Of a stretch of 64,000 bases of DNA, positions 8,018 through 24,911 are shown piece after piece. Origin of the DNA: Paenibacillus sp. MMS18-CY102 (lineage in GTDB: Bacteria; Bacillota; Bacilli; Paenibacillales; Paenibacillaceae); contig NZ_WSTC01000006.1 of the NCBI RefSeq assembly GCF_009789195.1, positions 8,126-72,125 of the forward strand. Direction: 5' to 3'. The translations under genes were made by a program, and so were the position numbers. Below the pieces are notes generated by a model. The model searched no databases. It saw only the letters and a program-made list of their open reading frames with translations, and had not been told where the DNA came from. Positions within the stretch are counted from its first letter, which is position 1. Each line of letters begins with the position of its first letter.

Positions 8018-8375
8018 CGTAACCTCCAAATTTGTCCATAGGTTTGTGTAAATAATTATATTAAAAAGTAAAAGTTAGTATATAGTCAACAACAAAAACG
8101 AATCGAAGGAAGAAGTAAAGCGCACAGTTATTCAGATTGTGAAGGGATATCAGGCAAGAATCGATCCCGGTATACGAGGCTGACACCATAGTAACTGAGG
8201 CTTTGAAATCTGTGAAGCACCGATTGGAGGCTGGTGGTAAAGTTTGAACTTGCGTCAGTAAAGAAAAAATTGATAATTCTTCAAATTTATCATGACTTCT
8301 CCTGATTGATTTGATATTATGTATAAATGTGAACTAAAGGATCATTTTTCCAATTGACTAAACGGAGGAAGTTGA

Positions 8376-9878
8376 GTGGCTTCTACAGAGAATGATGTAC
8401 GAGTGGCTATAGGAAGATGCCTAACGGAGGTGGTTTTTCATTTATCCGCCGAAATTAGCCCTTACTTTAAAAAGGGGGGGTTAGGGGATATGGTTCAGTC
8501 ATTACCCCGTGCATTGAGTAGACGAGAATTTTTGAATATTACGATCACACCTTACTACAGTACACTAAAAGGCAACCCCGAGCTGATCATTGAAGATTCA
8601 GTCGAATACAATGACCGAGTTTATACCTACCAGGTTTATGTTGCCATATCCGAAGGAGTTTATAGTCTATTTGTAAAAGTGAAAGACAGTTGGATTTTCG
8701 ACAAGATGTATAACACAGGATTGGACATCTATGATGGAAATGTAAATTTATCACACTTCTTATTCGGCAAAATAACGGCCATTGTAATCACCAAACTTAC
8801 TTCTTCACCCTGTACCCTTCTTACGCATGACTGGCACGTTGCATGTGTCTATCCCTACATAAAGCAGCTTGCTATTCCGGCAATGAAACTTCATGTGATT
8901 CATAACTTTCACTACCAGGGCGCACTAAACGAAGATATGCTCCATCTGGCAGAAGAAAATATAGAAGTGGATTTCAAGATCTTTCTCAATAAGTTCGGTC
9001 ATTGTTCCCTTTCTGGCATGGCAATTAACCAAGCAGATACAGTGATTACTGTAAGTCAGTCCTATGCGGAAGAACTATCAGGAAGGAGTGCGCCGCATCC
9101 AAATTTGCATGTTCTTGAGCTAGCAGATTTAAGGGGCATTGTAAACGGCTATGAGACTTCAATTTGGCACCCCGAATTAAGTGAATACGTAATTGTCCCC
9201 TATAATAAAAATTCCGTTACAGATAAGTTAAAGAACAAGAAATGGTTAATCAAAGAGCTTAGATTAGAAATAGACGAAACTAGACCGATTTTATTATTCT
9301 TAGGACGTCTGTCGCCCCAAAAGGGAATAGAATTGTTTTACAACGAAGGCGCGAATTTCTCTTTAAATATTGAAGCATTAATGGCCCTAGGTGCAGCATT
9401 TATTGTATGTGGCGAGCCACAAGAGAACGAAATTGATAAAAAATTTCAAAAGCTGGCGATGTCGATAGAGGGGGATTTCCGCTATATAGACCGCTACACC
9501 GAAGAGTTGGCACATCGATTATTGGCTGGCAGCGATATTTTAGTCCATCCATCCAAGTTTGAGCCTTGCGGTTTAACGCAGCTTTATGCCATGGCCTACG
9601 GGACAATTCCAATTGTTAATCCCGTTGGTGGTTTGAAAGATACTATTGTTTGCGAATTGAAAAATAATGGACAGGGCTGTGGGTTTTGGATGGAGGAGTA
9701 TAGTTTTAAAGGTTTATACGATGCTATCGAAACTACGATTTTCCATTATGAGCAAACCGATGTTTGGTCATCACTGATTGAGCGGGCAATGTCACAGCAG
9801 TACGATTGGGATCTTAGAATAGATCCTTATGTATCCATCATAAGCGAACATCAAAGGAGCAGACGACGTGAATTATAG
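8376..9878 (+). CDS. GT5-family glycogen/starch-synthase-like alpha-glucosyltransferase (GlgA-like, divergent)
   Basis: ISPYFKKGGLGDMVQSLPRAL corresponds to the GlgA K-T-G-G-L donor-binding motif. C-terminal GGLKDTIV corresponds to GlgA GGLADTV. GTG start with a GGAGG RBS. Confidence 0.55.
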   Translation: MASTENDVRVAIGRCLTEVVFHLSAEISPYFKKGGLGDMVQSLPRALSRREFLNITITPYYSTLKGNPELIIEDSVEYNDRVYTYQVYVAISEGVYSLFVKVKDSWIFDKMYNTGLDIYDGNVNLSHFLFGKITAIVITKLTSSPCTLLTHDWHVACVYPYIKQLAIPAMKLHVIHNFHYQGALNEDMLHLAEENIEVDFKIFLNKFGHCSLSGMAINQADTVITVSQSYAEELSGRSAPHPNLHVLELADLRGIVNGYETSIWHPELSEYVIVPYNKNSVTDKLKNKKWLIKELRLEIDETRPILLFLGRLSPQKGIELFYNEGANFSLNIEALMALGAAFIVCGEPQENEIDKKFQKLAMSIEGDFRYIDRYTEELAHRLLAGSDILVHPSKFEPCGLTQLYAMAYGTIPIVNPVGGLKDTIVCELKNNGQGCGFWMEEYSFKGLYDAIETTIFHYEQTDVWSSLIERAMSQQYDWDLRIDPYVSIISEHQRSRRREL

Positions 9879-11925
9879 AGTCGATCCTACCCAGTGGATC
9901 ATCTACCAAGTTCTAACTGACCGTTTTTATATTGGAAACTCCAAAGAAAATCAGATGTGTGCGCACCTAATCGATGATAGCGGTCATGACCTTTCGAAGT
10001 ACCTCGGTGGAGATTGGAGAGGGATTATCGAAAAAATTGAGGACGGTTATTTAACTGATATGGGTTTCAATGTAATCTGGATTTCTCAACCCGTTGAAAA
10101 TGTATTCGCCTTAAGAGAGAATGTGTCCTCGTATCATGGTTACTGGGCCCGGGATTTCAAACGGCCGAACCCGTTGTTTGGCTCCATGGAGGACTTCCGT
10201 GAATTGATTCGCATTGCTCATGAACATGATATGAAAATTGTAATTGATTTTGCCCCGCATCATACGTCTCCTGCGGAAGTTGGCGATCTCGGTTATATGG
10301 AAGATGGGGTCCTGCTTGATAATGGGAGAGCGATCGCTTCGTATAATTGGGATCCTCACAACTGTTTTCATCATGCTGGAGATAGTGATGAGGATTTTGA
10401 TACCTATGAAGATGGATTATACAAGAAGCTATACGGGTTAGCGGGCCTAAATGTTCAAAACGATATTGTGGATCGATACTTGAAAGAAGCAATATCGTTA
10501 TGGATCGACACTGGAATAGATGGAATTCGCATAGATGGGGTAAGGCACCTTCCGATTGGATGGTTAACGTCGTTTGTGCAAACGTTTGCTCGAGATGGAA
10601 GGCTATTTATTTTTGGTGAATGGTACCTTGGAAAGCATCGGAGGGATCCTCGAAACCCCCAGCTTGCAAATGAGAGTGGTATGGGGCTGCTGGATTTCAA
10701 GTTTGCAAACAAACTAAAGCAAATCATGCTTGAAAAAGAAGATGATTGGTCTGGTTTTGTGAGTATGCTCAACGTTACAGAGAAGGAGTATGAGCGTACG
10801 CATGAACTAGTTACGTTTATCGACAATCATGATTTGCCTAGATTTACAAGGGAGAATTCGATTGTTACGGACATTGCGCTTGTTGTTTTGTTAACAAGTC
10901 GAGGCATACCAAGTATTTATTATGGGACAGAGCAGTACATGACAGGTGCTTCTGATCCGGCTAATCGACAAATGATGAATTCATTCAATAAACAAACGCC
11001 AGCGTACAATATTATTCGGATTCTGTCCGGTTTGAGAAAACGGAATATGGCCATTGCTCAAGGGAAGACAAGTATACTGTATCATTCACCGGAAATCATA
11101 GTTTACCAAAGAGCATTTGGTGGGCACGTCGTTGTCGTTGCAACTAATCTGGGTACTACTAGCGTAGAGTTTATGTCCCTATACACGCAACTGCCTGAGG
11201 GAAGTTATAGCAATCTGGTTGGCGAATTTAGAGGTGAAAAGGAAGTAAATGTAGATAAGTTCGGTAAGATTGAAGCCATGGTACTTCACCCCTACGATAG
11301 TGTCGTTTTAGGAACAAGTGATCATTTTGAGTATCAGCCGGCAATCTCGCATATTTTCCCGGCGGTATCAAAGCGTGGAGACAAGGTTTGTATTTACGGA
11401 ACTGCTTTTGATAAGCAACAGGGAAGGGTCAAAGTAGGCACCGTTGAGGCTCATATACTGAACTGGCAAGATGACAGCATCGAAATTGTAGTACCGGAGC
11501 TTACTCCAGGGAAGCACCACGTTGAGATTACACGAATCGATACTGAATCGGCGGTGTATCAGCATTTTCGCATCAATACGGGCGAGCAAGTCTCTGTTCG
11601 CTTTATCGTTGATGAGGCATACGCGAATGATGATGAGCAAATCTACTTGATCGGAAACGTGTTTGAACTTGGAAATTGGGAACCGGCGAAAGCAATAGGA
11701 TCTTTCTTCAAAAAAGTGCTATATCAATATCCAACCTGGTATTACGACATAAGCGTACCGGCAGGAATAGAAATTCAATATAAATATATTAAGAAAAACT
11801 TCTCCGGGGAGGTCGTGTATGAAGACGGTGAAAATCATGTATGGGTTAGCCCAACTGATCAAACGGGAGAAGTTAGAGTTACATGGGGATGCCCAATAGG
11901 AGGTGAAGCGGATGATCGAAGTTAG
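9868..11925 (+). CDS. GH13 alpha-amylase-family enzyme with CGTase-like A-B-C-D(IPT)-E(CBM20) architecture, no signal peptide
   Basis: N-terminus YQVLTDRFYIGN is like the mature CGTase N-terminus. GH13 regions DFAPHHTSP, GIDGIRIDGVRHLP, GEWYLG and FIDNHD are present. The C-terminal domain looks CBM20-like (LIGNVFELGNWEPAKA...YPTWYYDISVPAG...EIQYKYIKK). The start overlaps the upstream gene by 11 nt. Confidence 0.7.
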   Translation: MNYRVDPTQWIIYQVLTDRFYIGNSKENQMCAHLIDDSGHDLSKYLGGDWRGIIEKIEDGYLTDMGFNVIWISQPVENVFALRENVSSYHGYWARDFKRPNPLFGSMEDFRELIRIAHEHDMKIVIDFAPHHTSPAEVGDLGYMEDGVLLDNGRAIASYNWDPHNCFHHAGDSDEDFDTYEDGLYKKLYGLAGLNVQNDIVDRYLKEAISLWIDTGIDGIRIDGVRHLPIGWLTSFVQTFARDGRLFIFGEWYLGKHRRDPRNPQLANESGMGLLDFKFANKLKQIMLEKEDDWSGFVSMLNVTEKEYERTHELVTFIDNHDLPRFTRENSIVTDIALVVLLTSRGIPSIYYGTEQYMTGASDPANRQMMNSFNKQTPAYNIIRILSGLRKRNMAIAQGKTSILYHSPEIIVYQRAFGGHVVVVATNLGTTSVEFMSLYTQLPEGSYSNLVGEFRGEKEVNVDKFGKIEAMVLHPYDSVVLGTSDHFEYQPAISHIFPAVSKRGDKVCIYGTAFDKQQGRVKVGTVEAHILNWQDDSIEIVVPELTPGKHHVEITRIDTESAVYQHFRINTGEQVSVRFIVDEAYANDDEQIYLIGNVFELGNWEPAKAIGSFFKKVLYQYPTWYYDISVPAGIEIQYKYIKKNFSGEVVYEDGENHVWVSPTDQTGEVRVTWGCPIGGEADDRS

Positions 11926-12907
11926 TCAACTAAGCAAAATGTACAAAATCGCGGATAAGAAGCCAGGGTTGATGGGAGCAGTTCAAAGCCTATTTCGACC
12001 GAAGTTTTATATTAAACAGGCCGTGGAAAATATTAGTTTTTCAATACAAAAAGGTGAGTTGGTCGGTTATATCGGAGCTAATGGAGCGGGGAAATCGACA
12101 ACGATAAAAATGTTATCGGGGATTATGACCCCTTCGTCGGGAGAGGTCCTGGTGAACGGCATTGAGCCGTATAAAAACCGGCAAAAGAATGCGGGGCAAA
12201 TCGGTGCTGTGTTCGGTCAACGAACGCAGCTGTTCTGGGACATTCCGGTTAGAGAATCCTACGAACTCCTAATGCACATCTATAAAGTTCCACCACAGCA
12301 GTTTAAACAAAATCTGGAGCAATTCGTGGAGACACTCGGATTGTCGTCTTTGTTAGGTATTCCCGTTCGTCAGCTTTCGCTCGGCCAAAAAATGAGATGT
12401 GAACTGGCTGCGGCTTTTTTACACGATCCATCGGTAGTCTTTCTCGACGAACCTACGATCGGGCTTGATATCTCCGTGAAATCGAAGATACGCTATTTTA
12501 TTCGTGAAATGAATCGTACGAGAGGGACAACTGTAATTTTAACCACACATGACATGCAGGATATCGAAGAGATTGTCAACCGTATCATTATTCTAGATCA
12601 AGGGAAAATCCTTTATGACGGCGACACTGGGGGCATTAAGGAGGACTTTGGAAATCAGCGTGTGATCGATTTCGATTTAACTTTTACAGATAACGACAGG
12701 ATCCCCATTGATATAACGGAGTTCGTATCGGTCATCCAGAAGGATCCTTCGAATGGGAAAATTACGCTATCATTCAATAATGGCGAAATAACGGCCGCGG
12801 AGGTTATTGCACGCATGATGTCCAAGTTTGAGGTTCATGATTTATCGATTACGGATACGCGGATCGAAGACATCGTAAAACGCTTGTATGAGAGAGAGGC
12901 ATCGTAA
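11912..12907 (+). CDS. ABC transporter ATP-binding protein
   Basis: Walker A GANGAGKST, signature LSLGQKMRCELAAAF and Walker B VVFLDEPT. ATG at 11912 after AGGAGGTG; it overlaps the CGTase-like gene end. Confidence 0.75.
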   Translation: MIEVSQLSKMYKIADKKPGLMGAVQSLFRPKFYIKQAVENISFSIQKGELVGYIGANGAGKSTTIKMLSGIMTPSSGEVLVNGIEPYKNRQKNAGQIGAVFGQRTQLFWDIPVRESYELLMHIYKVPPQQFKQNLEQFVETLGLSSLLGIPVRQLSLGQKMRCELAAAFLHDPSVVFLDEPTIGLDISVKSKIRYFIREMNRTRGTTVILTTHDMQDIEEIVNRIIILDQGKILYDGDTGGIKEDFGNQRVIDFDLTFTDNDRIPIDITEFVSVIQKDPSNGKITLSFNNGEITAAEVIARMMSKFEVHDLSITDTRIEDIVKRLYEREAS

Positions 12908-13697
12908 GTTGGGCGTTTATTGGAGATTTGCAAAGACCCAAGTGAAATTGGATGCGGCTTACTCGTTGTTGTACTGGTCCGGATTTTTGACCTCTCTAAT
13001 GAAGCTTTTCGTAATTTATTTTTTTTGGAGGGCCATTTTTGAATACCAGCCCACAATCAGTGGCATGTCATTCACCGAGACGTTGACGTACATGATTATC
13101 GCAACAGTTATCGTGAACTATGTATTCGGAGGCTCCAGTGATTTGGCCTCGATGATACGAGAGGGGAGTATTGCCATTGAATTGATGCGTCCCTATCATA
13201 CGCTACTTAAAATCATATCACTTGATATTGGAAGTAAAATTTCTCTGTTGGTCCGAGAGACACTACCAATGCTCGTGGTAGGGTATCTATTTTTACAAAT
13301 TGACTACCCACCGAGTATTGCACACATGCTGATATTTTTGGTTAGCCTGTTATTGGGTTTCTTTATTGGAAAAGAGTTTGAATTGTTGATTGGGTTAGCT
13401 TCCTTCTGGACGATCAATGATTGGGGGATGAGGCTGTTAAGAGGTGCTGTCGTCTTGTTTTTCTCCGGTGCGCTAATGCCTGTAAATTTATATCCACCCT
13501 GGCTAAAAAGTATTAATGCATATCTGCCTTTTCAGTCGATGGTATTTACACCGTCGGCCATTTATTCAGGCACAATGGAATGGGGGCAAATCGTTGTCGC
13601 CATGACTGCCCAAGTGGGTTGGCTTGTTATATTATTTTTCCTCGTTCGACTTATTTATAAAACTGCCTTGAAAAAAGTTGTCATCTTTGGCGGGTAG
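12888..13697 (+). CDS. ABC-2 family transporter permease
   Basis: Polytopic hydrophobic protein overlapping the ATPase stop. The true start may be TTG at 12909 (GAGAGAGG RBS). Confidence 0.5.
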   Translation: MRERHRKLGVYWRFAKTQVKLDAAYSLLYWSGFLTSLMKLFVIYFFWRAIFEYQPTISGMSFTETLTYMIIATVIVNYVFGGSSDLASMIREGSIAIELMRPYHTLLKIISLDIGSKISLLVRETLPMLVVGYLFLQIDYPPSIAHMLIFLVSLLLGFFIGKEFELLIGLASFWTINDWGMRLLRGAVVLFFSGALMPVNLYPPWLKSINAYLPFQSMVFTPSAIYSGTMEWGQIVVAMTAQVGWLVILFFLVRLIYKTALKKVVIFGG

Positions 13698-13713
13698 GGA
13701 GAGGTTGTCGCGG

Positions 13714-14499
13714 ATGTATTTACATTTGTATAGCCAGTTTTTTAAATGTCAGTTGAAAAACAAAATGGAGTTCAGAACAGATTTTCTGATCGGCATCCTA
13801 TCTGTACTTATCGTTCAGTCGACATCAATTTTGCTAATGAAGTTTGTTTTTGACCATATTCATTCGATTAAAGGCTGGACTTTTCAAGAGATTATGCTAA
13901 TTTACGGGGTCGCAGCAATGGGAAGGGCTATTCATCACGTGTTTTTTGATAATCTTTGGACGTTGGGCTCCCAGTATATTCGACCAGGAAACTTCGACCG
14001 GTTGTTAATTCGACCAATAAACCCGCTTTTTCATTTAATCGCCGAACGAGTTCAATTGGATGGAATCGGACAAATGGTCATGGGAATCATTATGCTAAGT
14101 TACTCATTATCCAATCTAGATTTGTCCTGGGGTTTTTTAGAGGTCACTATACTCCTCGTTATGATCGTTTCGAGTGGGTTAATCTTTGCTGCTGTTAACT
14201 TATTCGTGGCGACATTTTCTTTTTGGATGGTGGATAGTCTTCCTATTATGACGGCAGTTTTTCATCTAAGTGATTATGCTCGTTATCCAATTTCGATCTT
14301 TAACAAATGGATTCAACTGTTGTTGACATGGATAATTCCCTATGGTTTTGTTGCTTTTTATCCAGCAACGGTATTATTAAAATCCTCTGACTTTCAGTAC
14401 ATAGGTTTGTTGTCTCCACTAGTTGCAATCTTTTTATGTGGTTTTGCGTATTTGTTTTGGTTAGTTGGGCTTCGTTCGTTCACGTCGACAGGAAGTTAA
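13714..14499 (+). CDS. ABC-2 family transporter permease
   Basis: Second polytopic membrane protein. The start MYLHLYSQFF has a GGGAGAGG RBS. Confidence 0.5.
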   Translation: MYLHLYSQFFKCQLKNKMEFRTDFLIGILSVLIVQSTSILLMKFVFDHIHSIKGWTFQEIMLIYGVAAMGRAIHHVFFDNLWTLGSQYIRPGNFDRLLIRPINPLFHLIAERVQLDGIGQMVMGIIMLSYSLSNLDLSWGFLEVTILLVMIVSSGLIFAAVNLFVATFSFWMVDSLPIMTAVFHLSDYARYPISIFNKWIQLLLTWIIPYGFVAFYPATVLLKSSDFQYIGLLSPLVAIFLCGFAYLFWLVGLRSFTSTGS

Positions 14500-14887: not shown

Positions 14888-16036
14888 ATGGAGAACGTAC
14901 TTATCAATAAGGTAGATATGTTGGAGTCTTTGTACAATGAAAATGAAATTAAACAATTCTCAGCGTTAACGAATACGACAAGAAGATTATCAAATAAAGA
15001 TGAAATTACAATTCAAGCTAATCACCTTTGTCAATCAATCGATGTCGACATTTATTTGGAAGGAAACGTTACTGTTGACATGATTAATATGAAAGATTAT
15101 CCTTACCGTTCCATTGAAAACACGATAGAGTATATCTATGAAATCAAAAAATCCAATATAAACACCGTGCTGCTGCACCTTGTTGGAAATGAGTACGGTC
15201 AAGATCCATATAAGGTCCTTCAGGATCACGTACAGGCAATTCAACAAGTGCGTAAGCATTTCTCAAAAGAGGAATTGAACATTACGATTGATCCGTTCAT
15301 GACTGCATTCAACCAAGATGGCAGCTGGGGTGTTAAGGATGAATTCGGGAAATTAAAATATCTTGAAACCTTGAATCTATTGGCGGAAATTGCTACAGAT
15401 TATAGTTTAGCTGGCGCTGATGGGATTATCACCTTGGGAAGGGTCGAGGGTGAAGTAGAAGTAACCAAAAAAGCTTTAGCAAAGATCAGTTCCAACATGA
15501 AGATTAAGTCGTTCTCACAAAATACCGAAACTACGAATGCGTACATGTATCTTGAAAATTTACCCGATCAATTGGAAACAGGCCAAAAAATTTTAGTAGG
15601 CAACCTAACAGAGATGAATCTGCGAACGATTTTGGATATCCATGAAGGGGCAGATGTCATTATCGTAAAACCTATTGAAAACTTCCATCTCATTACGCTG
15701 ACTTTGGATTTCATTACGAATACGCAATCTGTAGCAGCATTTTTGAACAGCGCGAAGGCAAAAGAACTGCTTGAGGCTAATCCGTTCGTGAAACATAAAG
15801 TGGACCAAATCCTAGCTGACTTGGATGCTTTTGAGGCTAAGTGTGCAGGTGTAACGGTTGGAGCCTACTCTGTATCCGGAACTTATTTTATACATAAATC
15901 ATTCGAAAAAGAGAAGGGAGGCAGATTTTCGTTGGGATTAATGGATGAGCTTCTTAAGAACGCCATCTCAGCTGCAGGGGATCGTCTGGACAGTATTCTT
16001 GATCGTAATGCAATGTGGATTATCCAAAATAAATAG
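14888..16036 (+). CDS. divergent porphobilinogen-synthase (HemB/ALAD)-family protein; first Schiff-base Lys replaced
   Basis: The C-terminal half aligns with HemB. AGADGIITLGRVEG matches GADxxAPSDMMDGRV. EGADVIIVKPIENF matches GADxxMVKP. GAYSVSGTYF matches AYQVSGEYAM. DPFMTAFNQDGSWG resembles the Asp-rich Mg-type metal site. The SYSxK Lys position instead reads SFSQN. Confidence 0.5.
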   Translation: MENVLINKVDMLESLYNENEIKQFSALTNTTRRLSNKDEITIQANHLCQSIDVDIYLEGNVTVDMINMKDYPYRSIENTIEYIYEIKKSNINTVLLHLVGNEYGQDPYKVLQDHVQAIQQVRKHFSKEELNITIDPFMTAFNQDGSWGVKDEFGKLKYLETLNLLAEIATDYSLAGADGIITLGRVEGEVEVTKKALAKISSNMKIKSFSQNTETTNAYMYLENLPDQLETGQKILVGNLTEMNLRTILDIHEGADVIIVKPIENFHLITLTLDFITNTQSVAAFLNSAKAKELLEANPFVKHKVDQILADLDAFEAKCAGVTVGAYSVSGTYFIHKSFEKEKGGRFSLGLMDELLKNAISAAGDRLDSILDRNAMWIIQNK

Positions 16037-16097
16037 GAATAGCCACACTTCCTTAGGACTTAAAATGGCTAATACGTGATCGTATAGAGTAATACAA

Positions 16098-18326
16098 ATG
16101 AGTTGGCACGTTCAACGTAAAGGACGAGTCAACTCATTTGTATATGAGCCTTTAAATGAAAAACTATTAAGTGGGGTAATCGTTATTAAAACATTGATAA
16201 TTGATAACTACGATTCGTATACCTATAACATTTTTCAGCTTGTGGCCAAAATCAGTGGACAGGAACCGATCGTTATTCGTAACGATCAGATGAGCTTTGC
16301 TTCACTGCAACGTTTCGATTTTGATAACATTATCATTTCACCTGGACCAGGACGACCGGAAATTCCGATAGATGTCGGATTATCTGCTGAGGTGTTACTT
16401 CACATGGAAGTTCCGATATTAGGCGTGTGCCTGGGTCACCAAACGCTGGCTTACGTTTGCGGTGGCGAGGTAATGCATGCACCCGAGATCTTTCATGGTC
16501 GATTAAGTGAGGTGTTTCATGATGAATTGGGGCTGTTTACAAATATTCCTCAAGGCTTCAAGGTTGTTAGATATCATTCGCTGATCGTAAATGATGGTTT
16601 ACCCGCTAGCTTGGAGAAAACAGCGTGGACCTCGGATGGCGTGATAATGGGATTGAGACATAGAGAGAAACCTCAATGGAGTGTCCAGTTTCATCCAGAA
16701 TCTATTTGTACAGAATATGGTGAACAATTGTTTCAAAACTTCCACGATTTAACGATAAAGTATTATACGGATAAACAAATGATCGATCGGCTTGAGAAAG
16801 AGCAGGAAACTGCAGCATCCCGAGAAAACAGTGATGGCGATACGGATTCCAGCGGCAAATACGAAGTGATCGTAAGGGAACTGCCTGCTTACTATGATCC
16901 CGAAGAGGTATTTGTCCAACAGATGGCCGACCAGCCTTACGCTTTCTGGCTGGACAGCAGTAAAATAGAACCGGGGCGTTCAAGATATTCATTTATTGGG
17001 GCGAATACAGGGCCCTTCCGAAAAGTTATCCGATACCGTACAGCAGATCAACAGCTGGAAGTAACGACGTCCGAGGGAACGAAACAATGGACAGCTTCAA
17101 TCTTCGATTATTTAGAGCATGAACTTAAAGCATTTAGGTGCGACCAAAAGCTTCCGTTCGATTTTAACGGTGGGTTTGTAGGCTTCTTTGGCTATGAGCT
17201 TAAAGAAGAGTGTGGAGGCAATCGCGTTCATGCTTCAGATATCCATGACGCAATGTTTATCTTTGCTGATCAGTTTGTTGCGTTTGACCACGAACTTCGA
17301 AAAACTTACCTCGTTTCGTTAACCGATGATGTTACCCGGGCAGTAGCTCATACATGGTTAGATGAGTTTGAGCGGCATCTTCAAAACTTGTCCGCTTCAA
17401 AAGAATATTCACCGCAATATGTCAATCAAACGGTTGAGTTTCAATTAAGCAGGAGTTATAAGGAATATATCCAGGATCTCAATCAATTGAAGCAGTATTT
17501 AGTCGAAGGTGAGAGTTATGAAGTGAATCTGACAAACCGGATACACACAGGTCCAATCAAAGATACATTGCACACTTATCGCGTGTTACGCAAGGTAAAC
17601 CCAGCCCCTTATTCTGCATATTTACGTTTTGATCAAGTTGCTATTTTGTGCAGTTCTCCTGAAAAGTTCATTCAGGTCTCATCGGATCGAAGCGTGGAAG
17701 CAAAACCAATTAAGGGAACATTGCCACGTGGTAAATCGCCTGACGAGGATCAGACGCTGAAGCAGCAGCTTTTGACGAGTGTAAAGGATTTCTCGGAGAA
17801 TCTGATGATCGTCGATCTGATTCGAAATGATCTAGGTGTCGTTTGCGAAGTCGGATCGGTCCACGTGCCGAAATTGATGGAAGTAGAATCATTTGAGACG
17901 GTGCACCAGCTAGTTTCGACTATTAAAGGGAAATTGAAGCAAGAGGTGTCGGTCGTGGAATGCATTAAAGCGGGCTTTCCGGCCGGATCCATGACGGGTG
18001 CGCCGAAGATCAGAACGATGGAAATTATAGATACGTTAGAAAAGGAGCCAAGAGGAGTATATTCAGGTACCTTGGGATTACTTAGCTTAAATGGATCAGC
18101 GGATTTGAATGTCGTTATACGAACGATTGTTTGTACGCCTGAGAAAACAACGATTGGAGTTGGAGGCGGAATTACGATTCAGTCAAATGCAGATTCGGAA
18201 TACGAAGAAATGCTGCTTAAAGCGAAAGCGTTAATGAACGCTATAGTTGTCGCATTAAACGGAGAGAAAAGAGTAGTCAACTATGTTATTCATGGTGCCC
18301 GTGAGTTAGTAAGTTTCTTACATTAG
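16098..18326 (+). CDS. fused glutamine amidotransferase + chorismate-binding enzyme (PabA-PabB-type aminodeoxychorismate synthase-like)
   Basis: N-terminal class-I GATase (IIDNYDSYTYNIFQ, GVCLGHQ). C-terminal MST/chorismate-binding domain (SYEVNLTNR, GAPKIRTMEII, PRGVYSGTLG, GGGIT). Confidence 0.7.
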   Translation: MSWHVQRKGRVNSFVYEPLNEKLLSGVIVIKTLIIDNYDSYTYNIFQLVAKISGQEPIVIRNDQMSFASLQRFDFDNIIISPGPGRPEIPIDVGLSAEVLLHMEVPILGVCLGHQTLAYVCGGEVMHAPEIFHGRLSEVFHDELGLFTNIPQGFKVVRYHSLIVNDGLPASLEKTAWTSDGVIMGLRHREKPQWSVQFHPESICTEYGEQLFQNFHDLTIKYYTDKQMIDRLEKEQETAASRENSDGDTDSSGKYEVIVRELPAYYDPEEVFVQQMADQPYAFWLDSSKIEPGRSRYSFIGANTGPFRKVIRYRTADQQLEVTTSEGTKQWTASIFDYLEHELKAFRCDQKLPFDFNGGFVGFFGYELKEECGGNRVHASDIHDAMFIFADQFVAFDHELRKTYLVSLTDDVTRAVAHTWLDEFERHLQNLSASKEYSPQYVNQTVEFQLSRSYKEYIQDLNQLKQYLVEGESYEVNLTNRIHTGPIKDTLHTYRVLRKVNPAPYSAYLRFDQVAILCSSPEKFIQVSSDRSVEAKPIKGTLPRGKSPDEDQTLKQQLLTSVKDFSENLMIVDLIRNDLGVVCEVGSVHVPKLMEVESFETVHQLVSTIKGKLKQEVSVVECIKAGFPAGSMTGAPKIRTMEIIDTLEKEPRGVYSGTLGLLSLNGSADLNVVIRTIVCTPEKTTIGVGGGITIQSNADSEYEEMLLKAKALMNAIVVALNGEKRVVNYVIHGARELVSFLH

Positions 18327-18338
18327 GTTTTTGGTAAG

Positions 18339-18388
18339 TATGCGGTCCGTTTTCAGAAGAGGAAACGGGTCGCACACTTTTTCCAATT
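18339..18388 (+). terminator. probable rho-independent terminator
   Basis: Imperfect hairpin tgcggtccgttt...aaacgggtcgca followed by ctttttcc. Confidence 0.35.
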
Positions 18389-18399
18389 CAAAAATTCAG

Positions 18400-18792
18400 T
18401 TATTCAAAAGTCAGTTTTAGTCGGGGGCCAATCTCGCTAAATCCCATGTTCTTATAAAAAGAAAGTGTACGCCCCCACAGTTGGGCATTGGGTGCTCCGA
18501 CTTCAATACGTCTCCAACTATGGGTTTTTCCGTAATCGATGACGCATTGCAGCAGAACCTTCCCGACATGCATGGATCTATGCTCGGGGGCAACATAGAG
18601 CTCTTGAATGGTTCCAATTTTACCACAGGCATATAAAGCATACGTTTCAAAAGTAGTTATAACCCCGATACAAGTTTCTGAATGATCCAAAGCAACATAG
18701 GCTATATAATGATCGATGTTGGATAGCAGGGATTCACATGTTTGTTGGATAGAGAACTCGTCGATTATTATGCCCGACAATTCCTCCAGCAA
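18400..18792 (-). CDS. GNAT-family N-acetyltransferase (short; possibly 5'-truncated, TTG start)
   Basis: GNAT core QELYVAPEHRSMHVGKVLL. The open frame continues about 35 codons upstream with no ATG. Abuts the IS remnant. Confidence 0.4.
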   Translation of the reverse strand: MLEELSGIIIDEFSIQQTCESLLSNIDHYIAYVALDHSETCIGVITTFETYALYACGKIGTIQELYVAPEHRSMHVGKVLLQCVIDYGKTHSWRRIEVGAPNAQLWGRTLSFYKNMGFSEIGPRLKLTFE

Positions 18793-18949
18793 AAGCTTGA
18801 CGGCCCTAACGAGCGTTTGCGTGTCATGAATGGTTGCTCTTCGGTAAGTGAACAGTGGCGACTCCTCCTGACCCGATCGAATACGAATACAAGTGCCTGT
18901 AAAAGATAACTATTCAACTGCCTAATTCACTTGGACGCTTAACACGCTT

Positions 18950-19560
18950 CATATAGATTAGATAGAATTGTGTTGAGTGTCATTGAAAAGATGGTTTCGG
19001 TGTCCTATTGAATCGATAAGGGAGTATGTTGCCAAGGTGGTGTCGGGTTACCGAATGAAGGTTGTGGCCAGAAAACATGGATTTTCATCTAGCTCACTTA
19101 GAAAATGGTTATGCCATTACCGAGATGAGGTGGATGTGGCTATAGCTAAAAAGCACTAGAAAGACGAACAGCTACAGCAAGATGCAGCGGAATTCCGAGA
19201 CATGCAGAAGAAGTATAAGAAGCGACGAAACCGCTCGTAATTCGTCCCAATAAAGGCGCATAGTCATCAGTAAGGCATTTTACGCTTTCTGTGGACAAGT
19301 GGGTGTTGAGCATGAACGAATCCAACGAAAACACTGGATAAGAAGCGCCTACTTCGGGACTTTCTATAGTTTTCTGGAGAGGGAGCGTTACCAAAGACGT
19401 TGTTCTGAAACCTAAGACGAGGTGTATAAAGAGGTCGTTCGTTTTATCTGTTACTCCAACAAAGACCGAATCCACAACAGCCTCCATGACTGGCCTCAAG
19501 TCGAAAACCTTCGTTTAGTGGACGAGGGCTAGATAAAACAAGTAAGAGTGCGCTTAAAAA
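18950..19560 (+). mobile_element. degenerate IS3-family transposase remnant (frameshifted OrfA/OrfB fragments)
   Basis: An intact 60-aa piece resembles the IS3 OrfA HTH region (ARKHGFSSSSLRKW). Downstream frames carry a transposase C-terminus-like NKDRIHNSLHDWPQVENL. Multiple frameshifts and stops; no inverted repeats identified. Confidence 0.4.
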
Positions 19561-19664
19561 CGAGCTGCTTCAATTGAAAGTGGTTAGTGTCCAAATTTAT
19601 TAGGAGTTTAACCGCTAATAGCCGGATTGCTCCGAATATTAGCGGTATATGAATCTCAATAGGA

Positions 19665-21836
19665 TCAGCTGTACATGGTCACGACATTATGGATAATCTT
19701 CAATCCCGAATCCCCTCTAGTAGTCAAAATGGACTCCGGATGGAATTGAACTGCGGAAATTGGCAATGTTTTATGTTCGACAGCCATGACTACCTGATCA
19801 TCTGATACAGCAATTATCTTTAAGCAATCGGGGACTGTGCTGGCATGAATCGAATGATATCGGCTGGCCATAAATACTTTCGGTAAGTCATCCCACAATC
19901 GGCTTTCATTAGAGGTATGAATAGGCGAAGATTTCCCATGCATTGGATACTCAAGGTAATCTAGGGTTCCTCCGAAGTATTCGACAATGCCTTGAAGTCC
20001 GAGGCATACTCCGAAAATCGGGATGTTATTGCTGATACATAAACCTATTGTATCGTTTAGGGTGAATTCGCTAGGCGTACCGGGTCCGGGCGATAGTACG
20101 ACTAAATCGAATGACGAAGCAGGGTCTTCTAATATCTTCTTGGCAAGCGGTTGCCGAGCTGTCAAAATATCAGCACCTGTTTGTTTGAAGTAGTTGCCCA
20201 ATGTATGGACAAAGGAATCCTCGTGATCCACAATTAGAATTCTCTTTGCCGTTTTCTGTAACGGAAGCGGGGGAGCTTCATGCTTAAGATCGTGCTGGCT
20301 CCCCTTAATGGCCTGGACTAATGCAGCTGCCTTTGTTACGGTTTCTTCTTCTTCATCTGCGGGGATGGAGTCAAATAGAAGTGTCGCCCCAACGCGAATG
20401 TCTGCAATACCATTTTGAATTCGCATGGTCCGTAGCGTAAGTCCTGTATGCAAATCCCCGTTGAACGAATAGTATCCAACAGCGCCGCCATACCATCTTC
20501 GACGTGAACTTTCATTCTGTTCAATCCATTTAATTGCGTTGCGTTTAGGGGCACCAGTAACTGTTACGGCCCACATGTGGCTGATAAATGCGTCCAAAGC
20601 ATCCACCTCTGGCAAGAGATGACCCTCAACATGATCGACGGTATGAATAAGATGCGAGTACATTTCAAGCTGACGACGACCGATAACATTAACAGAGCCG
20701 GGGACACAAATTCTGGACTTATCATTTCTATCCACGTCTGTGCACATAGTTAACTCCGCTTCATCCTTCGTCGAACTTAGCAACTGCAATATCCGATCAG
20801 CATCCTCAATAGCGTTGCTGCCCCTTCTTACCGTGCCGGAAATTGGACAAGTTTCCACTCGGCTGCCTTTTACGCGGACATACATTTCCGGTGAAGATCC
20901 AACCAAATGCTCCGTGCCTAAATTAATAATAAACCCATAAGGGCTAGGATTAATTTCGCGGAGCCTTGAAAAAATGTTGGAGGGTGCGTCTTTGCATTTT
21001 TCGAAAAATGAGTGGGTTGGGACGACTTCAAACAAATCGCCACGTTTAAAGGATTCTACAGCTTTTTCGACAAGTTTTGCGTAATTTCCCTTTATGTACT
21101 GAGGTGGTAGGTTCCCATCTGTTGTCAATTGGGAAAGAACGTTAACTTCACTGGAGCGTTCTATTCCTTCCGTGCTAGCGCCCTGAAAGATAAAATCATA
21201 GGACAACAAGTAAGCACACTCTTTTTGATGATCAACAATTGTTAATTCATCAGGCAGGTAGAGTACCATATCTGGGAGCTTCTCTGAGCGATTCTGTGAT
21301 AGCTCCACCGATTCTAGATTAAACACCAAATCGTAGCCAAAAGCACCGTACAGACCTAAATAGGAATCCTCAGGAGCGTAGAAAAGTTCTTTAATAGCAC
21401 GTAGTACAGTAAATATAGAAGGCTGTTTCGTGCGGTCTTCTTCATTAAATAAGTCATCACTTGTCTTAATTGAGCCTTGAAGCAGGTAATTCGTAAAGGT
21501 AAGATGCTCAATGACAGAAAGGGCTTCGATATGTTTATGTAGTTCATTTAGAATTATTTCACCTCGGGAATTCAAGGCGCTAATTTCAAATTGCTTTCCA
21601 TATGAGCGGAGTTCGAGAGGAGGATTGATAAATCCGATATCCCAGCGTGAGTAACGGCCTGGATATTCATAACTACTGGAGAAGAGTGCTCCTTTTTGTT
21701 GATCGATGAAGGCTAGAATCCTGTCGGAAGCAGTTGTTGGTTCAATAGGGGTTGCGGCTCTCCTAATTTGAAATCCAGCCTGAGTTGTGTACAAAATTTC
21801 AGAGGGATTAACGACCAATTTGGAAACAATACTCAT
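19665..21836 (-). CDS. fused chorismate-binding (TrpE-like, N-terminal) + glutamine amidotransferase (C-terminal) enzyme; anthranilate synthase or PhzE-type ADIC synthase
   Basis: The N-terminal MST domain is about 500 aa. The C-terminal GATase has KRILIVDHEDSFVHTLGNYF and GVCLGLQG. AAAGGAGG RBS. Confidence 0.7.
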   Translation of the reverse strand: MSIVSKLVVNPSEILYTTQAGFQIRRAATPIEPTTASDRILAFIDQQKGALFSSSYEYPGRYSRWDIGFINPPLELRSYGKQFEISALNSRGEIILNELHKHIEALSVIEHLTFTNYLLQGSIKTSDDLFNEEDRTKQPSIFTVLRAIKELFYAPEDSYLGLYGAFGYDLVFNLESVELSQNRSEKLPDMVLYLPDELTIVDHQKECAYLLSYDFIFQGASTEGIERSSEVNVLSQLTTDGNLPPQYIKGNYAKLVEKAVESFKRGDLFEVVPTHSFFEKCKDAPSNIFSRLREINPSPYGFIINLGTEHLVGSSPEMYVRVKGSRVETCPISGTVRRGSNAIEDADRILQLLSSTKDEAELTMCTDVDRNDKSRICVPGSVNVIGRRQLEMYSHLIHTVDHVEGHLLPEVDALDAFISHMWAVTVTGAPKRNAIKWIEQNESSRRRWYGGAVGYYSFNGDLHTGLTLRTMRIQNGIADIRVGATLLFDSIPADEEEETVTKAAALVQAIKGSQHDLKHEAPPLPLQKTAKRILIVDHEDSFVHTLGNYFKQTGADILTARQPLAKKILEDPASSFDLVVLSPGPGTPSEFTLNDTIGLCISNNIPIFGVCLGLQGIVEYFGGTLDYLEYPMHGKSSPIHTSNESRLWDDLPKVFMASRYHSIHASTVPDCLKIIAVSDDQVVMAVEHKTLPISAVQFHPESILTTRGDSGLKIIHNVVTMYS

Positions 21837-22216
21837 GTTTTTCCTCCTTTGTGAGAGGGGGAACAGGAGGTATTAAGCCGAATAAAAAACAAATGATAGA
21901 ATAATTTGCTAGGCTCATCTCAGCTTATGCTCATCTCAACAACCTGTTCATCACTCATAAATATATATATTATATTAGATATTACTAGATTTTACAAGGG
22001 TGACACCTATCCAAAGCGTTAAGTTAGCTATCAAGTGGATTGAATCTTGATGAAGACTTGCTTATGAAGAAAACAGTCGGATCAGCTTTGTTTAGATTGC
22101 AATATAATGTAGATAAAGGTATAATTTACATGGAGCAACTTTATCTATTTAGCTATCGAATTCATTGGTAAATTATCTAAGTAAATCTACAATATATTAC
22201 ATATGGAGATGAAGTT

Positions 22217-22930
22217 ATGCAAGAAATTAGTGAATCAAGAGTGAACAATTTTGAAAATTCTCCGATTGAGGAAAATAGCTTTGAGCTAATGGAGAGCATG
22301 TATTTATCGGATGGAGAAATTCCATTATTGCCTTTGCATATGGTCCGATTGAAGGAGTCATCGAACAGCCTTAGCTACAACTATGATTATGATCGAATTA
22401 TTGGTGAAGTAAAGCGTAATTTAGATAACCTTCTTAGTGGAAATTATAAGTTTAGGGTGACGCTAAGTAAAGCAGGTATACCGACAATTACCTATGAGAA
22501 ATTGGATGGGACAAGACCATTTGCAAAGGAAGAAATTCCTCCTGATGCTAAGATATGTACGTTCTGTTTTGCCGCAGGACCTGTCGACTCCTCAAATCTG
22601 TTTCTTTACCACAAGTCTACAAACCGCCGGTTGTATGAACTGATTTATGAAGAAAGAAATGAAAATGACGATGTTTTAATGTATAACGAGAAGAACGAGA
22701 TTACCGAATTCACTAGAGGGAATATTGTAATTGAACTTGATTCGCAGTTAGTGACGCCACCTTACGAATGCGGTCTCATTCCTGGTGTTTTGAGGTCTCA
22801 GCTTCTTAACTCAGGCGTACTACAAGAAAAGAAACTTAGCTTCACTGATGTAAAACGAGCATCTAGAGTATGGCTCTTAAACAGTGTCGGTGGCTGGCAC
22901 AAGTTTAAAATCAACACCTCTTTGTTGTAA
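22217..22930 (+). CDS. class-IV (fold-type IV) PLP enzyme, aminodeoxychorismate-lyase-like
   Basis: 237 aa; LYHKSTNRRLY matches the conserved HKTxNR motif of PabC-type lyases/class-IV aminotransferases. Confidence 0.55.
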   Translation: MQEISESRVNNFENSPIEENSFELMESMYLSDGEIPLLPLHMVRLKESSNSLSYNYDYDRIIGEVKRNLDNLLSGNYKFRVTLSKAGIPTITYEKLDGTRPFAKEEIPPDAKICTFCFAAGPVDSSNLFLYHKSTNRRLYELIYEERNENDDVLMYNEKNEITEFTRGNIVIELDSQLVTPPYECGLIPGVLRSQLLNSGVLQEKKLSFTDVKRASRVWLLNSVGGWHKFKINTSLL

Positions 22931-22983
22931 TTCGCGTTTCGAAGAGAGTCTGCTGCCGTCCGAGTAAATAAGGGGGGGACATA

Positions 22984-23889
22984 TTGTATATTGCCGTCGG
23001 GGATCTTATAAAGAATAGCAGAACGGTGGGGGTCTCGGCTTTTGATCATGGTCTATTATACGGATTGACAATATTTGAATCATTTCGCACCTATAATCGC
23101 ATCCCATTTTTACTAGGTGATCATTTAACCCGCATGAATAATGCTTTGCGTGACTTGAGAATCAGCTACATAGCTTCTGAAGTAAAAGTTCAAGAGCGAA
23201 TCAACAAACTGCTGGACATGAATAACCTAAGAGATGCTTATTTCCGTTTTATCGTGACGCCCGGTGAACAATCCCTCGAGTTGCCTATTCAGCCCTATAA
23301 CAAACCTGTAGATATCCTTTTGATCCAGCCACTAGAACCTTACAAAACGCGCCTATATAATGAAGGTATAACTTTAAAATTATTGAATCAACGAGCCGGC
23401 AGGGTAGATGGACATCAGAGTTTTAGAACGAGTAGTTGGTTTAATACCATCTTGGGTAGAAGAGAGTTATATCAATTGTGTGAAAAAAAACCATCAGGAT
23501 GGCTGATGCTGGATTCTTTGGAAGGACTACAGCTTACTTTGGATGGCTCAATTATCGGGGGGATTTCCTCCAATGTGTTATTTAGAATAGGTAATGTTTG
23601 GTATACGCCTGCTATAGAGACAGGTGCATTGCCTGGTATTACGCGTTCTTGGGCAATCCAAACATTAAAGAATGAGGGAATAGAAGTATATGAGGGCTTC
23701 TATCAATGGGAAGATATTCTTCACGCTGATGAAATCATGCTTACAAACTCTAACTATGAACTAATACCAGTAAACAAGTTAATGGGGATTGATGGTAGTG
23801 AGGTGAGTGTAGGTAACGGCATGGCGGGGCTGATTACCCGGAAGCTACTTAAAAAGTACAGTGATGAAGCTACAAGTAACTGTCCCTAA
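22984..23889 (+). CDS. class-IV aminotransferase family protein (branched-chain aa aminotransferase/ADC lyase-like)
   Basis: 301 aa; FDHGLLYGLTIFE matches the FDHGxxYGDGVFE N-terminal motif. TTG start after a G-rich RBS. Confidence 0.6.
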   Translation: MYIAVGDLIKNSRTVGVSAFDHGLLYGLTIFESFRTYNRIPFLLGDHLTRMNNALRDLRISYIASEVKVQERINKLLDMNNLRDAYFRFIVTPGEQSLELPIQPYNKPVDILLIQPLEPYKTRLYNEGITLKLLNQRAGRVDGHQSFRTSSWFNTILGRRELYQLCEKKPSGWLMLDSLEGLQLTLDGSIIGGISSNVLFRIGNVWYTPAIETGALPGITRSWAIQTLKNEGIEVYEGFYQWEDILHADEIMLTNSNYELIPVNKLMGIDGSEVSVGNGMAGLITRKLLKKYSDEATSNCP

Positions 23890-24173
23890 TTGCATCAGCC
23901 CAAACTATGATTCAACCTACTAAATTCAAACATTACTTCACTGATGACTTATTTGATTGAAGAAGAGTTTAAACTACTCTGTACCCTGACGAGTCATTCT
24001 AGCAGAAAGGTTGGTGGTCAAACCCCATTTAGCGGACAATGAATAAAACACTATCTTGTGAGTTGACCTTGGTACATTACCGGAGTCAGCTTTTATAGTG
24101 CGCCCAGTTTTACTTACCTATAACTAGGTCTTTGCATAGGATACATGGTCGATCAGAACATTCGGAGAGGAGC

Positions 24174-24722
24174 ATGAGTATGTACGCGAATTCATGCTAT
24201 CCCTATACAGGGCATTATCCTATGCAAGACCACTGGAGCAGCGATTGGAGATACTATTGGCATCCTCAATATTACCATTGGAGCAACCATGCCTATAGCC
24301 CGCAAGGTGCTATCTTACTGCAAGATTACGGGCCAAAACCGTTAGTCCTCAACATCGCCCGAGCATCGAAGCAAAACAACAACTACCGCACAACTTTATG
24401 GACCGGCAAATATTTTCAAGTAACGGTGATGAGCATTAATGTCGGTGACGACATCGGGTTGGAGGTCCATCCGACAACGGACCAGTTCATTCGGATAGAA
24501 GAGGGCCAGGGAATGGTTCAAATGGGCGACAGCAAGGATAAACTGGATTTTCAAGCGTTCGCTACGGTTGATTCTGCGATTATGGTTCCAGCGGGAAAAT
24601 GGCATAATGTGACGAATACAGGCAATCGTCCTATGAAGGTTTCCGTCATCTATGCCCCGCCTGAGCATCCGCATAGCACAGTACATGCAACGAAAGCCAT
24701 TGCGCAAGAAATGCAGGATTAG
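24174..24722 (+). CDS. cupin-domain protein with Tyr/His/Trp/Pro-rich N-terminus (spore-coat-like)
   Basis: C-terminal cupin_2-like core GDDIGLEVHPTTDQFIRIEEGQGMV...VPAGKWHNVTNTG. The N-terminus (YPYTGHYPMQDHWSSDWRYYWHPQYYHW) is low-complexity. The start is ATG at 24174 with a GGAGAGGAG RBS. Confidence 0.5.
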   Translation: MSMYANSCYPYTGHYPMQDHWSSDWRYYWHPQYYHWSNHAYSPQGAILLQDYGPKPLVLNIARASKQNNNYRTTLWTGKYFQVTVMSINVGDDIGLEVHPTTDQFIRIEEGQGMVQMGDSKDKLDFQAFATVDSAIMVPAGKWHNVTNTGNRPMKVSVIYAPPEHPHSTVHATKAIAQEMQD

Positions 24723-24828
24723 AAAAAGTAGGCGTAAGCGCGACAAGGTGCCGTACCCGTATGCTGCGCATGTGGAGTGCTGCTCACTGTTGGCCAGGAA
24801 AGACTATTCGTTGAGGTGTATTGGCGGG

Positions 24829-24858
24829 AATAGGAAAGAGGGGCAATCGCCCCTCTTT
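24829..24858. terminator. bidirectional rho-independent terminator
   Basis: agaggggcaatcgcccctct followed by T8, between convergent genes. Confidence 0.55.
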
Positions 24859-24911
24859 TTTTGTCTTATGAACTATCGTTCGCACATGATGTTATGTGAA
24901 GGCTACGGCTT

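Follow-up and report, generated by a model that had tools for sequence, protein, structure and literature searches.

Cyclodextrin glucanotransferases (CGTases) are described as secreted starch degraders; cyclodextrins are placed outside the cell, as intermediates in the uptake of starch. In the acarbose cluster of Actinoplanes sp. SE50/110, AcbI and AcbS are GT5-like, and in Brucella, Agrobacterium and Rhizobium the cyclic beta-1,2-glucan depends on the synthase Cgs/ChvB/NdvB and the ABC exporter Cgt/ChvA/NdvA. Acarbose is synthesized intracellularly and leaves the cell through the exporter AcbWXY, the CGTase-like AcbD being extracellular (PMC7682106). The CM-CD pathway combines an extracellular CGTase, the MdxEFG importer with its solute-binding protein, and a cytoplasmic cyclodextrinase (PMC8760340). 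As for GlgA-type glucans at the cell surface, a 2024 review lists only two cases, the mycobacterial capsule and the WecP/WaaL route of Aeromonas, and states that the mechanism by which the mycobacterial capsule glucan is secreted is not known (PMC11046441). In the open-access literature, no description of a cytoplasmic CGTase or of a GlgA-CGTase-exporter system was found. These systems are compared here with a five-gene operon at positions 8376-14499 of a 64,000-nucleotide stretch of Paenibacillus sp. MMS18-CY102 DNA (contig NZ_WSTC01000006.1; hereafter, the window), which encodes a glucan synthase of family GT5, a CGTase-like enzyme of family GH13, and the ATPase and two permeases of an ABC-2 transporter.

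The five tightly packed open reading frames (ORFs) lie on the plus strand with the content and positions given in the original prediction, and the Pfam families agree with it: Glyco_transf_5 and Glycos_transf_1 in gene 1, Alpha-amylase, TIG and CBM_20 in gene 2, ABC_tran in gene 3, and ABC2_membrane_6 in genes 4 and 5. That prediction read the operon as an intracellular pathway that synthesizes an alpha-1,4-glucan, cyclizes or transglycosylates it, and exports the product. The gene content, the GH13 enzyme devoid of a secretion signal and the exporter-class family of the transporter speak for this scheme, in which a cyclodextrin has become only one of the possible products, the subsites of the GH13 enzyme being altered. 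We consider it about evenly balanced whether the operon works as a module that makes an alpha-glucan in the cytoplasm, cuts or cyclizes it, and exports the small product derived from it. Judged from sequence comparison, the constant element is a dedicated glucan synthase placed beside a predicted cytoplasmic, catalytically intact GH13 transglycosylase. Because both the type of GH13 enzyme and the type of exporter are swapped between lineages (non-orthologous replacement), functional coupling rather than chance adjacency is suggested.

In the proposed mechanism, GT5 would elongate an alpha-1,4-glucan from ADP-glucose supplied by a host GlgC encoded elsewhere. The translationally coupled CGTase-like enzyme would then act in the cytoplasm, independently of the two Ca2+ sites of secreted CGTases and holding the chain partly through its still recognizable CBM20. 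Its retaining transglycosylation could close a cyclodextrin-like ring within one molecule or, between molecules, yield short malto-oligosaccharides or glucosylated acceptors. Finally, a DUF990/EVE-family ABC-2 transporter, composed of the ATPase and the two permeases, would move the product out of the cell. A cyclodextrin-like ring as the product of the CGTase-type cassettes is a live possibility because the central Tyr195 and the full architecture are kept, and one to which we attach a low probability. It is likewise doubtful that some Firmicutes make a cyclodextrin, or a related small cyclic or short alpha-1,4-glucan, de novo from ADP-glucose by means of a dedicated GlgA paralogue and a calcium-independent CGTase of the cytoplasm, and secrete it via an ABC-2 pump as a specialized metabolite. 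As far as the sequences and the literature compared here indicate, the arrangement is new, the enzyme families are known, and a cytoplasmic CGTase variant lacking the Ca2+ sites is rare; the degree of conservation is sufficient to take the arrangement as real.

The GH13 protein aligns over residues 5-673 with the CGTase of Geobacillus stearothermophilus (1CYG; E = 5e-206, 47% identity) and over its full length with 1A47, some 35 other solved CGTases being matched as well, and it is 43-48% identical to more than 100 CGTases in the databases. The five-domain A-B-C-D-E architecture, including the C-terminal CBM20, is present, so that the full CGTase domain order predicted for this gene is borne out by both the Pfam matches and the structural alignment. 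The predicted lack of a secretion signal was also confirmed. The alignment to mature 1CYG begins at residue 7, an in-frame TAA lies at 9841, 8 codons before the start, and the DNA further upstream codes for the C-terminus of GT5. Only 10 residues precede the conserved motif IIYQVLTDRF, compared with a median of 42 (minimum 24) in 109 other homologues. Because of the stop codon, the upstream GT5 coding sequence and the short N-terminus, a signal peptide is not possible, and the enzyme is predicted to be cytoplasmic. The NCBI protein P0001 of the source organism (656 aa) is 100% identical to this product, and begins at Met30, thereby losing the conserved beta-1 strand IIYQVLTDRF (window 9868-9957); this annotated start is probably wrong, the GTG at 9868 with its AAGGAG site being the better candidate. 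Owing to the shorter NCBI protein, a look-up of the exact window GH13 sequence gave no entry.

The active site was compared with 118 mostly secreted homologues by using the numbering of Bacillus circulans 251 CGTase, on a reference sequence which we take to be that of this enzyme and in which all 41 landmark residues were placed correctly. The catalytic residues D229, E257 and D328 are retained together with R227, H140, H233, H327 and Y100, and the central Tyr195 is present in the window enzyme and in its counterparts from Paenibacillus xylaniclasticus and from a distant 35%-GC organism (contig L004, described below). The check that had been proposed for the catalytic triad and the central Tyr/Phe thus came out in favor of an intact enzyme, and the residue alignment contains no Novamyl-type loop insertion. 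The calcium sites behave differently. Among the residues considered (D27/N29/N32/N33/G51/D53 and N139/I190/D199/H233), ligands are altered at both sites, by D27I, N32E, N139H and D199G; conservation of these positions among the 118 homologues is 97% or higher. N139H and a change at D199 occur in all three proteins, P. xylaniclasticus retains D27, and the P. xylaniclasticus and L004 enzymes also share K232R and changes at A230. The loss of Ca2+ ligands fits an enzyme working in the low-Ca2+ cytoplasm.

A pseudogenized secreted CGTase that has lost its 5' end was considered and rejected, as the catalytic residues and all five domains are kept in three lineages at 42-58% identity, and this explanation is countered also by the translational coupling of the gene and by the derived substitutions held in common. 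As a separate observation, the GH13 protein of P. xylaniclasticus (P0002, encoded at 4344-6386 of L001) has Gln at the region-I position His140. Leemhuis and colleagues are said to have found in 2004 that position 140 switches reaction specificity in CGTase and acarviosyl transferase, and H140Q hints at differing chemistry within the clade.

The GT5 protein carries the KxGGL motif that had been noted for it and, in addition, the C-terminal GlgA motifs, EPCGL included. Among solved structures, Arabidopsis SS4 and E. coli GlgA come closest to it. With 320.7 bits it falls just under the cut-off of TIGR02095 (glgA; 328.45), and it scores far below the cut-offs of all GlgA equivalog models. For the residue alignment, what is presumably the E. 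coli GlgA sequence, whose residue numbering proved self-consistent, served as reference for 22 clade members and 90 canonical GlgAs. The window enzyme retains K15, G17, G18, D137, H161, N162, N246, R300, K305, Y355 and E377 (E. coli numbering), and the KxGGL loop as well as the catalytic and nucleotide-binding residues K15, D137, H161, R300, K305, Y355 and E377 are kept in all 22 clade members. As every catalytic or ADP-glucose-contacting residue that was examined is conserved, GT5 very probably has alpha-1,4-glucan synthase activity. Its clade is distinct, with 30-56% identity among the members versus about 27-32% to canonical GlgA. The families of glgB, glgC and glgP, already reported as missing by the original prediction, were not found when nearly all window ORFs of 150 aa or more were scanned, nor did any of these genes lie beside the clade GT5 in the 8 other contexts examined. 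Compared with the classical GlgA of glgBCAP operons, the window enzyme shares the fold, the catalytic and ADP-glucose-binding residues, and the KxGGL and EPCGL motifs, but it stands in its own clade, scores below the TIGR02095 cut-off, and is partnered by a signal-less GH13.

The pairing of a glucan synthase with a cytoplasmic CGTase-like enzyme is real and conserved beyond the window. P. xylaniclasticus has an overlapping GT5 and CGTase-like pair (56% and 58% identity), followed by nonribosomal peptide synthetase (NRPS) genes. The same five genes in the same order are found on two contigs (L004 and L005) of the 35%-GC organism, which is distant from Paenibacillus; here the identities between L004 and the window are 43% for GT5, 42% for GH13, 61% for the ATPase, and 44% and 53% for the permeases. 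In L004/L005 the transporter genes are followed, with tiny gaps, by WbqC, an uncharacterized gene, PIG-L and GT2, so that the pump sits inside a nine-gene glycan operon. The proposed co-occurrence of all five genes thus holds for L004/L005, and fails for P. xylaniclasticus, where the transporter is missing. A third case, with a different glycosyltransferase, is the run at 10001-16289 of L093/L094 (GCA_050433705.1), which consists of two DUF1611 genes, the signal-less CGTase-like P0362, a 144-aa ORF, a 393-aa glycogen-synthase-type glycosyltransferase (GT5/GT4 type), an FrhB/FdhB-like gene and an EPSP-synthase-like gene. P0362, one small gene away from this synthase, retains N139, D196, A230 and K232, and upstream of the run, at a distance of about 1.1 kb, is a divergent MFS and LacI pair.

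When 1.84 billion representative proteins were searched with a profile, only four signal-less clusters stood at the top of the CGTase-like matches, with a fifth, P0380, lower; P0362 is one of these clusters. At nearly all of 80 metagenomic CGTase loci the enzyme is extended at its N-terminus by 28-128 residues that include a hydrophobic core, and none of the 80 has a GT5 within 10 kb, versus 3/3 loci at which the extension is at most 11 residues (Fisher p = 1.3e-5). Three further metagenomic loci (L141, L145 and L146) seem to encode signal-less CGTases and have no GT5 on the stretches examined. One of them, at 4492-11995 of L146, is a classical cyclodextrin-uptake cluster with a cyclodextrinase containing Alpha-amylase_N, a solute-binding protein, two permeases and the CGTase; about 10 residues precede the conserved motif in the CGTase ORF, which could reflect a problem with the start codon or the assembly, or else a signal of unusual shortness. 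In a neighbor-joining tree, the signal-less CGTase-like proteins group together, weakly, beside the secreted CGTases, and the window and P. xylaniclasticus enzymes are joined in 100/100 bootstraps.

The GT5 clade extends to Halanaerobiales, Acidobacteriota, Fulvivirga ulvae, Clostridium cibarium and two other metagenomic lineages. There, GT5 adjoins a signal-less GH13 of about 665 aa that belongs to the neopullulanase/cyclomaltodextrinase group and has intact catalytic residues (L003, L006/L007, L008, L009, L010 and L011). In total, a signal-less, catalytically intact GH13 adjoins the clade GT5 in 9/9 contexts examined, and an exporter gene (ABC-2, MatE or MFS) is in or beside the run in 5/9, the MatE or MFS pumps being those of L006, L009 and L011. 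The pair lies beside an NRPS in L010, and beside radical-SAM and sugar-modifying genes in L006 and L011. GT5 with a signal-less neopullulanase-like GH13 looks like an undescribed, widespread two-gene module. A genome-wide context search with an alignment of the GT5 clade returned patterns common to all GlgAs and at least one new clade member (Clostridium cibarium, L011). The clade motif IDFAPH(H/Q)TSP, sought in metagenomes by exact matching of a degenerate DNA pattern, gave no match. RHS/YD-repeat and polymorphic-toxin/immunity genes (AHH, Imm11, Tox-REase-7) were observed just upstream of the GT5-GH13 pair in two unrelated contigs, L004 (416-8449) and L008 (563-7739), and are probably coincidental island content. 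A role in antiphage defense was rejected, PADLOC giving just generic GlgB-like and ATPase matches.

The transporter consists of one ATPase, with Walker A GANGAGKS, signature LSLGQ and Walker B VVFLDE, and two different hydrophobic PF06182 permeases, the first with about 5-6 hydrophobic segments; no gene for a solute-binding protein is in the operon. PF06182/DUF990 corresponds to TCDB 3.A.1.141 (EVE), an exporter class in which EvrABC of Synechocystis exports ethyl viologen (PMC5417439). Since the binding-protein gene is absent, export is a reasonable direction to assume for this DUF990 transporter. EvrABC has the same family and the same subunit make-up, an ATPase with two PF06182 permeases, but its known substrate is a small cation, and a link to carbohydrate genes is undescribed (PMC5417439).

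The borders of the operon are listed in Table 1. It is bounded by intergenic gaps of 346 bp upstream and 388 bp downstream, the upstream one containing a weak candidate promoter. A GGAGG ribosome-binding site precedes the GTG at 8376, GT5 and GH13 overlap by 11 nt with the AAGGAG site 8 nt before the GTG at 9868, and GH13 and the ATPase overlap by 14 nt, the AGGAGG ahead of the ATG at 11912 being within the GH13 gene; the ATPase ORF may also be read from 11903, the ATG at 11912 being taken as its start. While these two overlaps are as predicted, the one proposed between the ATPase and permease 1 (12888-12907; 20 nt) requires the ATG at 12888, which is an uncertain start with no evident ribosome-binding site. 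The fourth proposed overlap (13678-13697) is not retained because it needs the TTG at 13678, a less likely start for permease 2 than the ATG at 13714; the latter is preceded by a GGAGAGG site, leaves a gap of 16 nt, and agrees with the NCBI protein P0241 (261 aa), which is 100% identical to permease 2. An internal promoter or terminator that would place the ABC genes in a separate transcription unit had been raised as a possible objection; within the operon, promoter-like matches are not above chance (17 found versus 24 expected from shuffled sequence) and terminator-like matches are about at chance (7 versus 6.8). No regulatory RNA family of Rfam was matched in window 1-30000, leader included.

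Table 1. Features of the five-gene operon, in window coordinates
Feature	Position	Strand	Basis and remarks
GT5 glycogen/starch-synthase paralogue, 500 aa	8376-9878	+	Pfam PF08323 and PF00534
CGTase-like GH13, 685 aa, domains A-B-C, TIG (D) and CBM20 (E)	9868-11925	+	Pfam, 1CYG alignment
ABC ATPase, 331 aa from ATG 11912	11912-12907	+	Pfam PF00005, DrrA-type NCBIfam matches
ABC-2 permease 1, PF06182/DUF990	12888-13697	+	Pfam 8.4e-17; start codon uncertain
ABC-2 permease 2, PF06182/DUF990, 261 aa	13714-14499	+	Pfam 8.2e-52; longest ORF from TTG 13678
Promoter-like site ATGACT-17-TATTAT, extended TG	8292-8320	+	Consensus scan at chance level overall; weak

Set against the systems described at the outset, the operon has known parts in a different arrangement. 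Like the secreted CGTases (GH13_2, EC 2.4.1.19; e.g., 1CYG and the B. circulans 251 enzyme 1CDG), its GH13 protein has the five-domain fold, the catalytic Asp/Glu/Asp, three conserved His, the central Tyr and a CBM20, but it lacks a signal peptide, has lost both Ca2+ sites, and is altered at subsites -6/-3/+1/+2. In the CM-CD (cym/cgt/cld) clusters the CGTase serves uptake, whereas here its neighbors are a glucan synthase and an ABC-2 exporter, and the flow would be reversed. An uptake cluster of this type was rejected for the window, as SBP_bac, BPD_transp and a second GH13 (cyclodextrinase) were not found in it and the CGTase-like enzyme is not secreted. The acarbose cluster likewise contains glycogen-synthase-like glycosyltransferases, a CGTase-family transferase and a three-gene ABC exporter; unlike the window enzyme, however, AcbD acts outside the cell, and cyclitol and dTDP-aminosugar genes are not beside the window operon. 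Position 140 of AcbD is said, again after Leemhuis et al. in 2004, to be Gly, whereas the window enzyme has His140. An acarbose-type cluster was dismissed, since none of the scanned window ORFs of at least 150 aa belongs to a DHQ-synthase-like family, as 2-epi-5-epi-valiolone synthase (a sugar-phosphate cyclase) would, and the cyclitol genes characteristic of the acarbose pathway, like aminosugar genes, were not found in the scanned ORFs. The nearest functional analogue is the cyclic beta-1,2-glucan system, with a similar logic of cytoplasmic polymerization and cyclization followed by ABC export. That system, however, is proteobacterial and not homologous to the window operon: a single giant enzyme, a GT84/GH94 fusion, carries out both steps with beta-1,2 linkage, and the exporter is a type I ABC protein.

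Several findings weigh against the synthesis, cyclization or cutting, and export of a small glucan product. On the enzyme side, G180D, N193K, D196G, A230G, K232R and F259Y affect subsites -6, -3, +1 and +2 at positions which hardly vary in secreted CGTases, and R47S is a further subsite change. Mutants of the B. circulans 251 CGTase tie such subsite residues to cyclization and to donor/acceptor binding, and because the subsites are changed the product specificity of the GH13 protein is not readable from its sequence. The maltose-binding sites of its CBM20 are partly degraded (W662Y, G601D, N603Q and N627K), and no ADP-glucose pyrophosphorylase gene was found among the scanned window ORFs. In most lineages the partner of the clade GT5 is the neopullulanase-like GH13, a type not known for cyclodextrins, and the grouping of signal-less CGTase-like proteins obtained only 38/100 bootstraps. 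The transporter adds further difficulties. It is absent beside the P. xylaniclasticus pair; the nearest homologues of permease 2 (62-64% identical, widespread in Bacillales) belong to stand-alone three-gene operons among housekeeping genes in the 2 contexts examined; and the window trio is as close to the stand-alone trios of Fictibacillus and other Bacillales as to that of L004. As these trios are about equally similar, the pump has no cassette-specific lineage. Finally, EvrABC, the sole characterized member of the family, exports a cation of about 200 Da and not a sugar ring of about 1 kDa.

One alternative is that the GT5-GH13 pair tailors a secondary metabolite, adding alpha-glucosyl or malto-oligosyl units to the aglycone of a neighboring pathway, with the conjugate being pumped out, in the manner in which GH13 and GH77 enzymes modify acarbose; we regard this as unlikely. 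It would account for the company that the pair keeps. In P. xylaniclasticus and Fulvivirga ulvae the neighbors are NRPS genes; an acidobacterial metagenome-assembled genome and Clostridium cibarium have radical-SAM and sugar-modifying genes there, L009 has an HpaB-type oxygenase, and the window has a GT28 and a luciferase-like monooxygenase on one side with ALAD-like, PabAB and other chorismate-pathway genes on the opposite one. The MatE, MFS and EVE pumps would suit small molecules, and CGTases and neopullulanases both transglycosylate well onto non-glucan acceptors (PMC2804789). Yet the neighboring clusters (NRPS, radical SAM resembling that of ribosomally synthesized and post-translationally modified peptides, or none) have no chemistry in common, and in the window the operon, with its 346-bp and 388-bp gaps, is a transcription unit of its own with which no aglycone pathway is co-operonic. 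The route would also be a detour compared with a direct Leloir glycosyltransferase.

A rather improbable explanation is that the pair builds an alternative intracellular storage glucan, of the amylose or granulose type, the CGTase-like enzyme disproportionating or remodeling it in place of GlgB/MalQ and the pump, encoded downstream by chance, serving unrelated housekeeping efflux. No GlgA feature is missing from GT5, the CBM20 would tether its enzyme to the glucan, stand-alone operons hold the closest relatives of the ABC-2 trio, and the P. xylaniclasticus pair does without the transporter. A mere housekeeping pump is hard to reconcile, however, with the 14-nt overlap that places the ribosome-binding site of the ATPase within the GH13 gene, with L004, where the cassette order recurs and a glycan operon has the pump genes at its center, and with the three unrelated exporter families that accompany the pair in other phyla. 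Storage is further disfavored by the failure to find glgB, glgC and glgP nearby among the scanned ORFs, and by a GT5 clade that lies just below the GlgA model cut-off and whose surroundings are accessory and cluster-like, not glg operons. Export of a polymeric alpha-glucan, such as a capsule or exopolysaccharide, by an ABC-2 transporter comparable to Wzm/Wzt, KpsMT or TagGH, with the GH13 enzyme processing chain length or branching, appears very unlikely. ABC-2 transporters are the classic polysaccharide exporters, and the L004 operon adds GT2, PIG-L and WbqC; surface alpha-glucans made in the cytoplasm exist, moreover, in mycobacteria and Aeromonas (PMC11046441). On the other hand, the operon lacks an enzyme for lipid-carrier priming, the ATPase has no polymer-binding extension, DUF990 is grouped with small-molecule exporters (PMC5417439), and MatE or MFS pumps stand in for the ABC-2 transporter in other lineages.

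Two other gene groups of the window deserve mention. On the 3' side of the operon, 14888-25553 holds a chorismate-pathway-like group, possibly a small aminobenzoate-type cluster. Its ALAD-like protein (382 aa) is divergent and scores far under the porphobilinogen-synthase cut-offs; with it are a PabA-PabB fusion, two class IV aminotransferases, a cupin, a kinase resembling chloramphenicol phosphotransferase and, on the minus strand, a fusion of the TrpE-TrpG type. Farther away, 42013-63673 (plus strand) is a long co-directional run resembling a separate biosynthetic cluster. It comprises two PPDK_N/PEP-utilizer proteins, a dTDP-sugar epimerase and a reductase, a PNP_UDP phosphorylase, a carbamoyltransferase, an SbnA/SbnB-like pair (PALP and ornithine cyclodeaminase), two type I ABC exporters, a BtrH_N protein and an NRPS adenylation protein.

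If the make, cut or cyclize, and export reading is true, bacteria would deliberately make and secrete, from central metabolism, oligosaccharides of a kind so far placed in starch degradation outside the cell, and these would gain a new role as carriers, sequestrants or matrix components; the product could serve as a host molecule that solubilizes or sequesters hydrophobic compounds. The locus would also offer a candidate export route for alpha-glucans made in the cytoplasm, a matter that touches the mycobacterial capsule glucan, and the enzymes would form a starch-free, calcium-independent set for the fermentative production of cyclodextrins or malto-oligosaccharides. The clade-specific GT5 and the signal-less GH13 would provide a marker pair for mining "saccharide" gene clusters, and the combination of GT5, a cytoplasmic GH13 and an exporter would represent an unrecognized, phylum-spanning class of oligosaccharide biosynthetic module.

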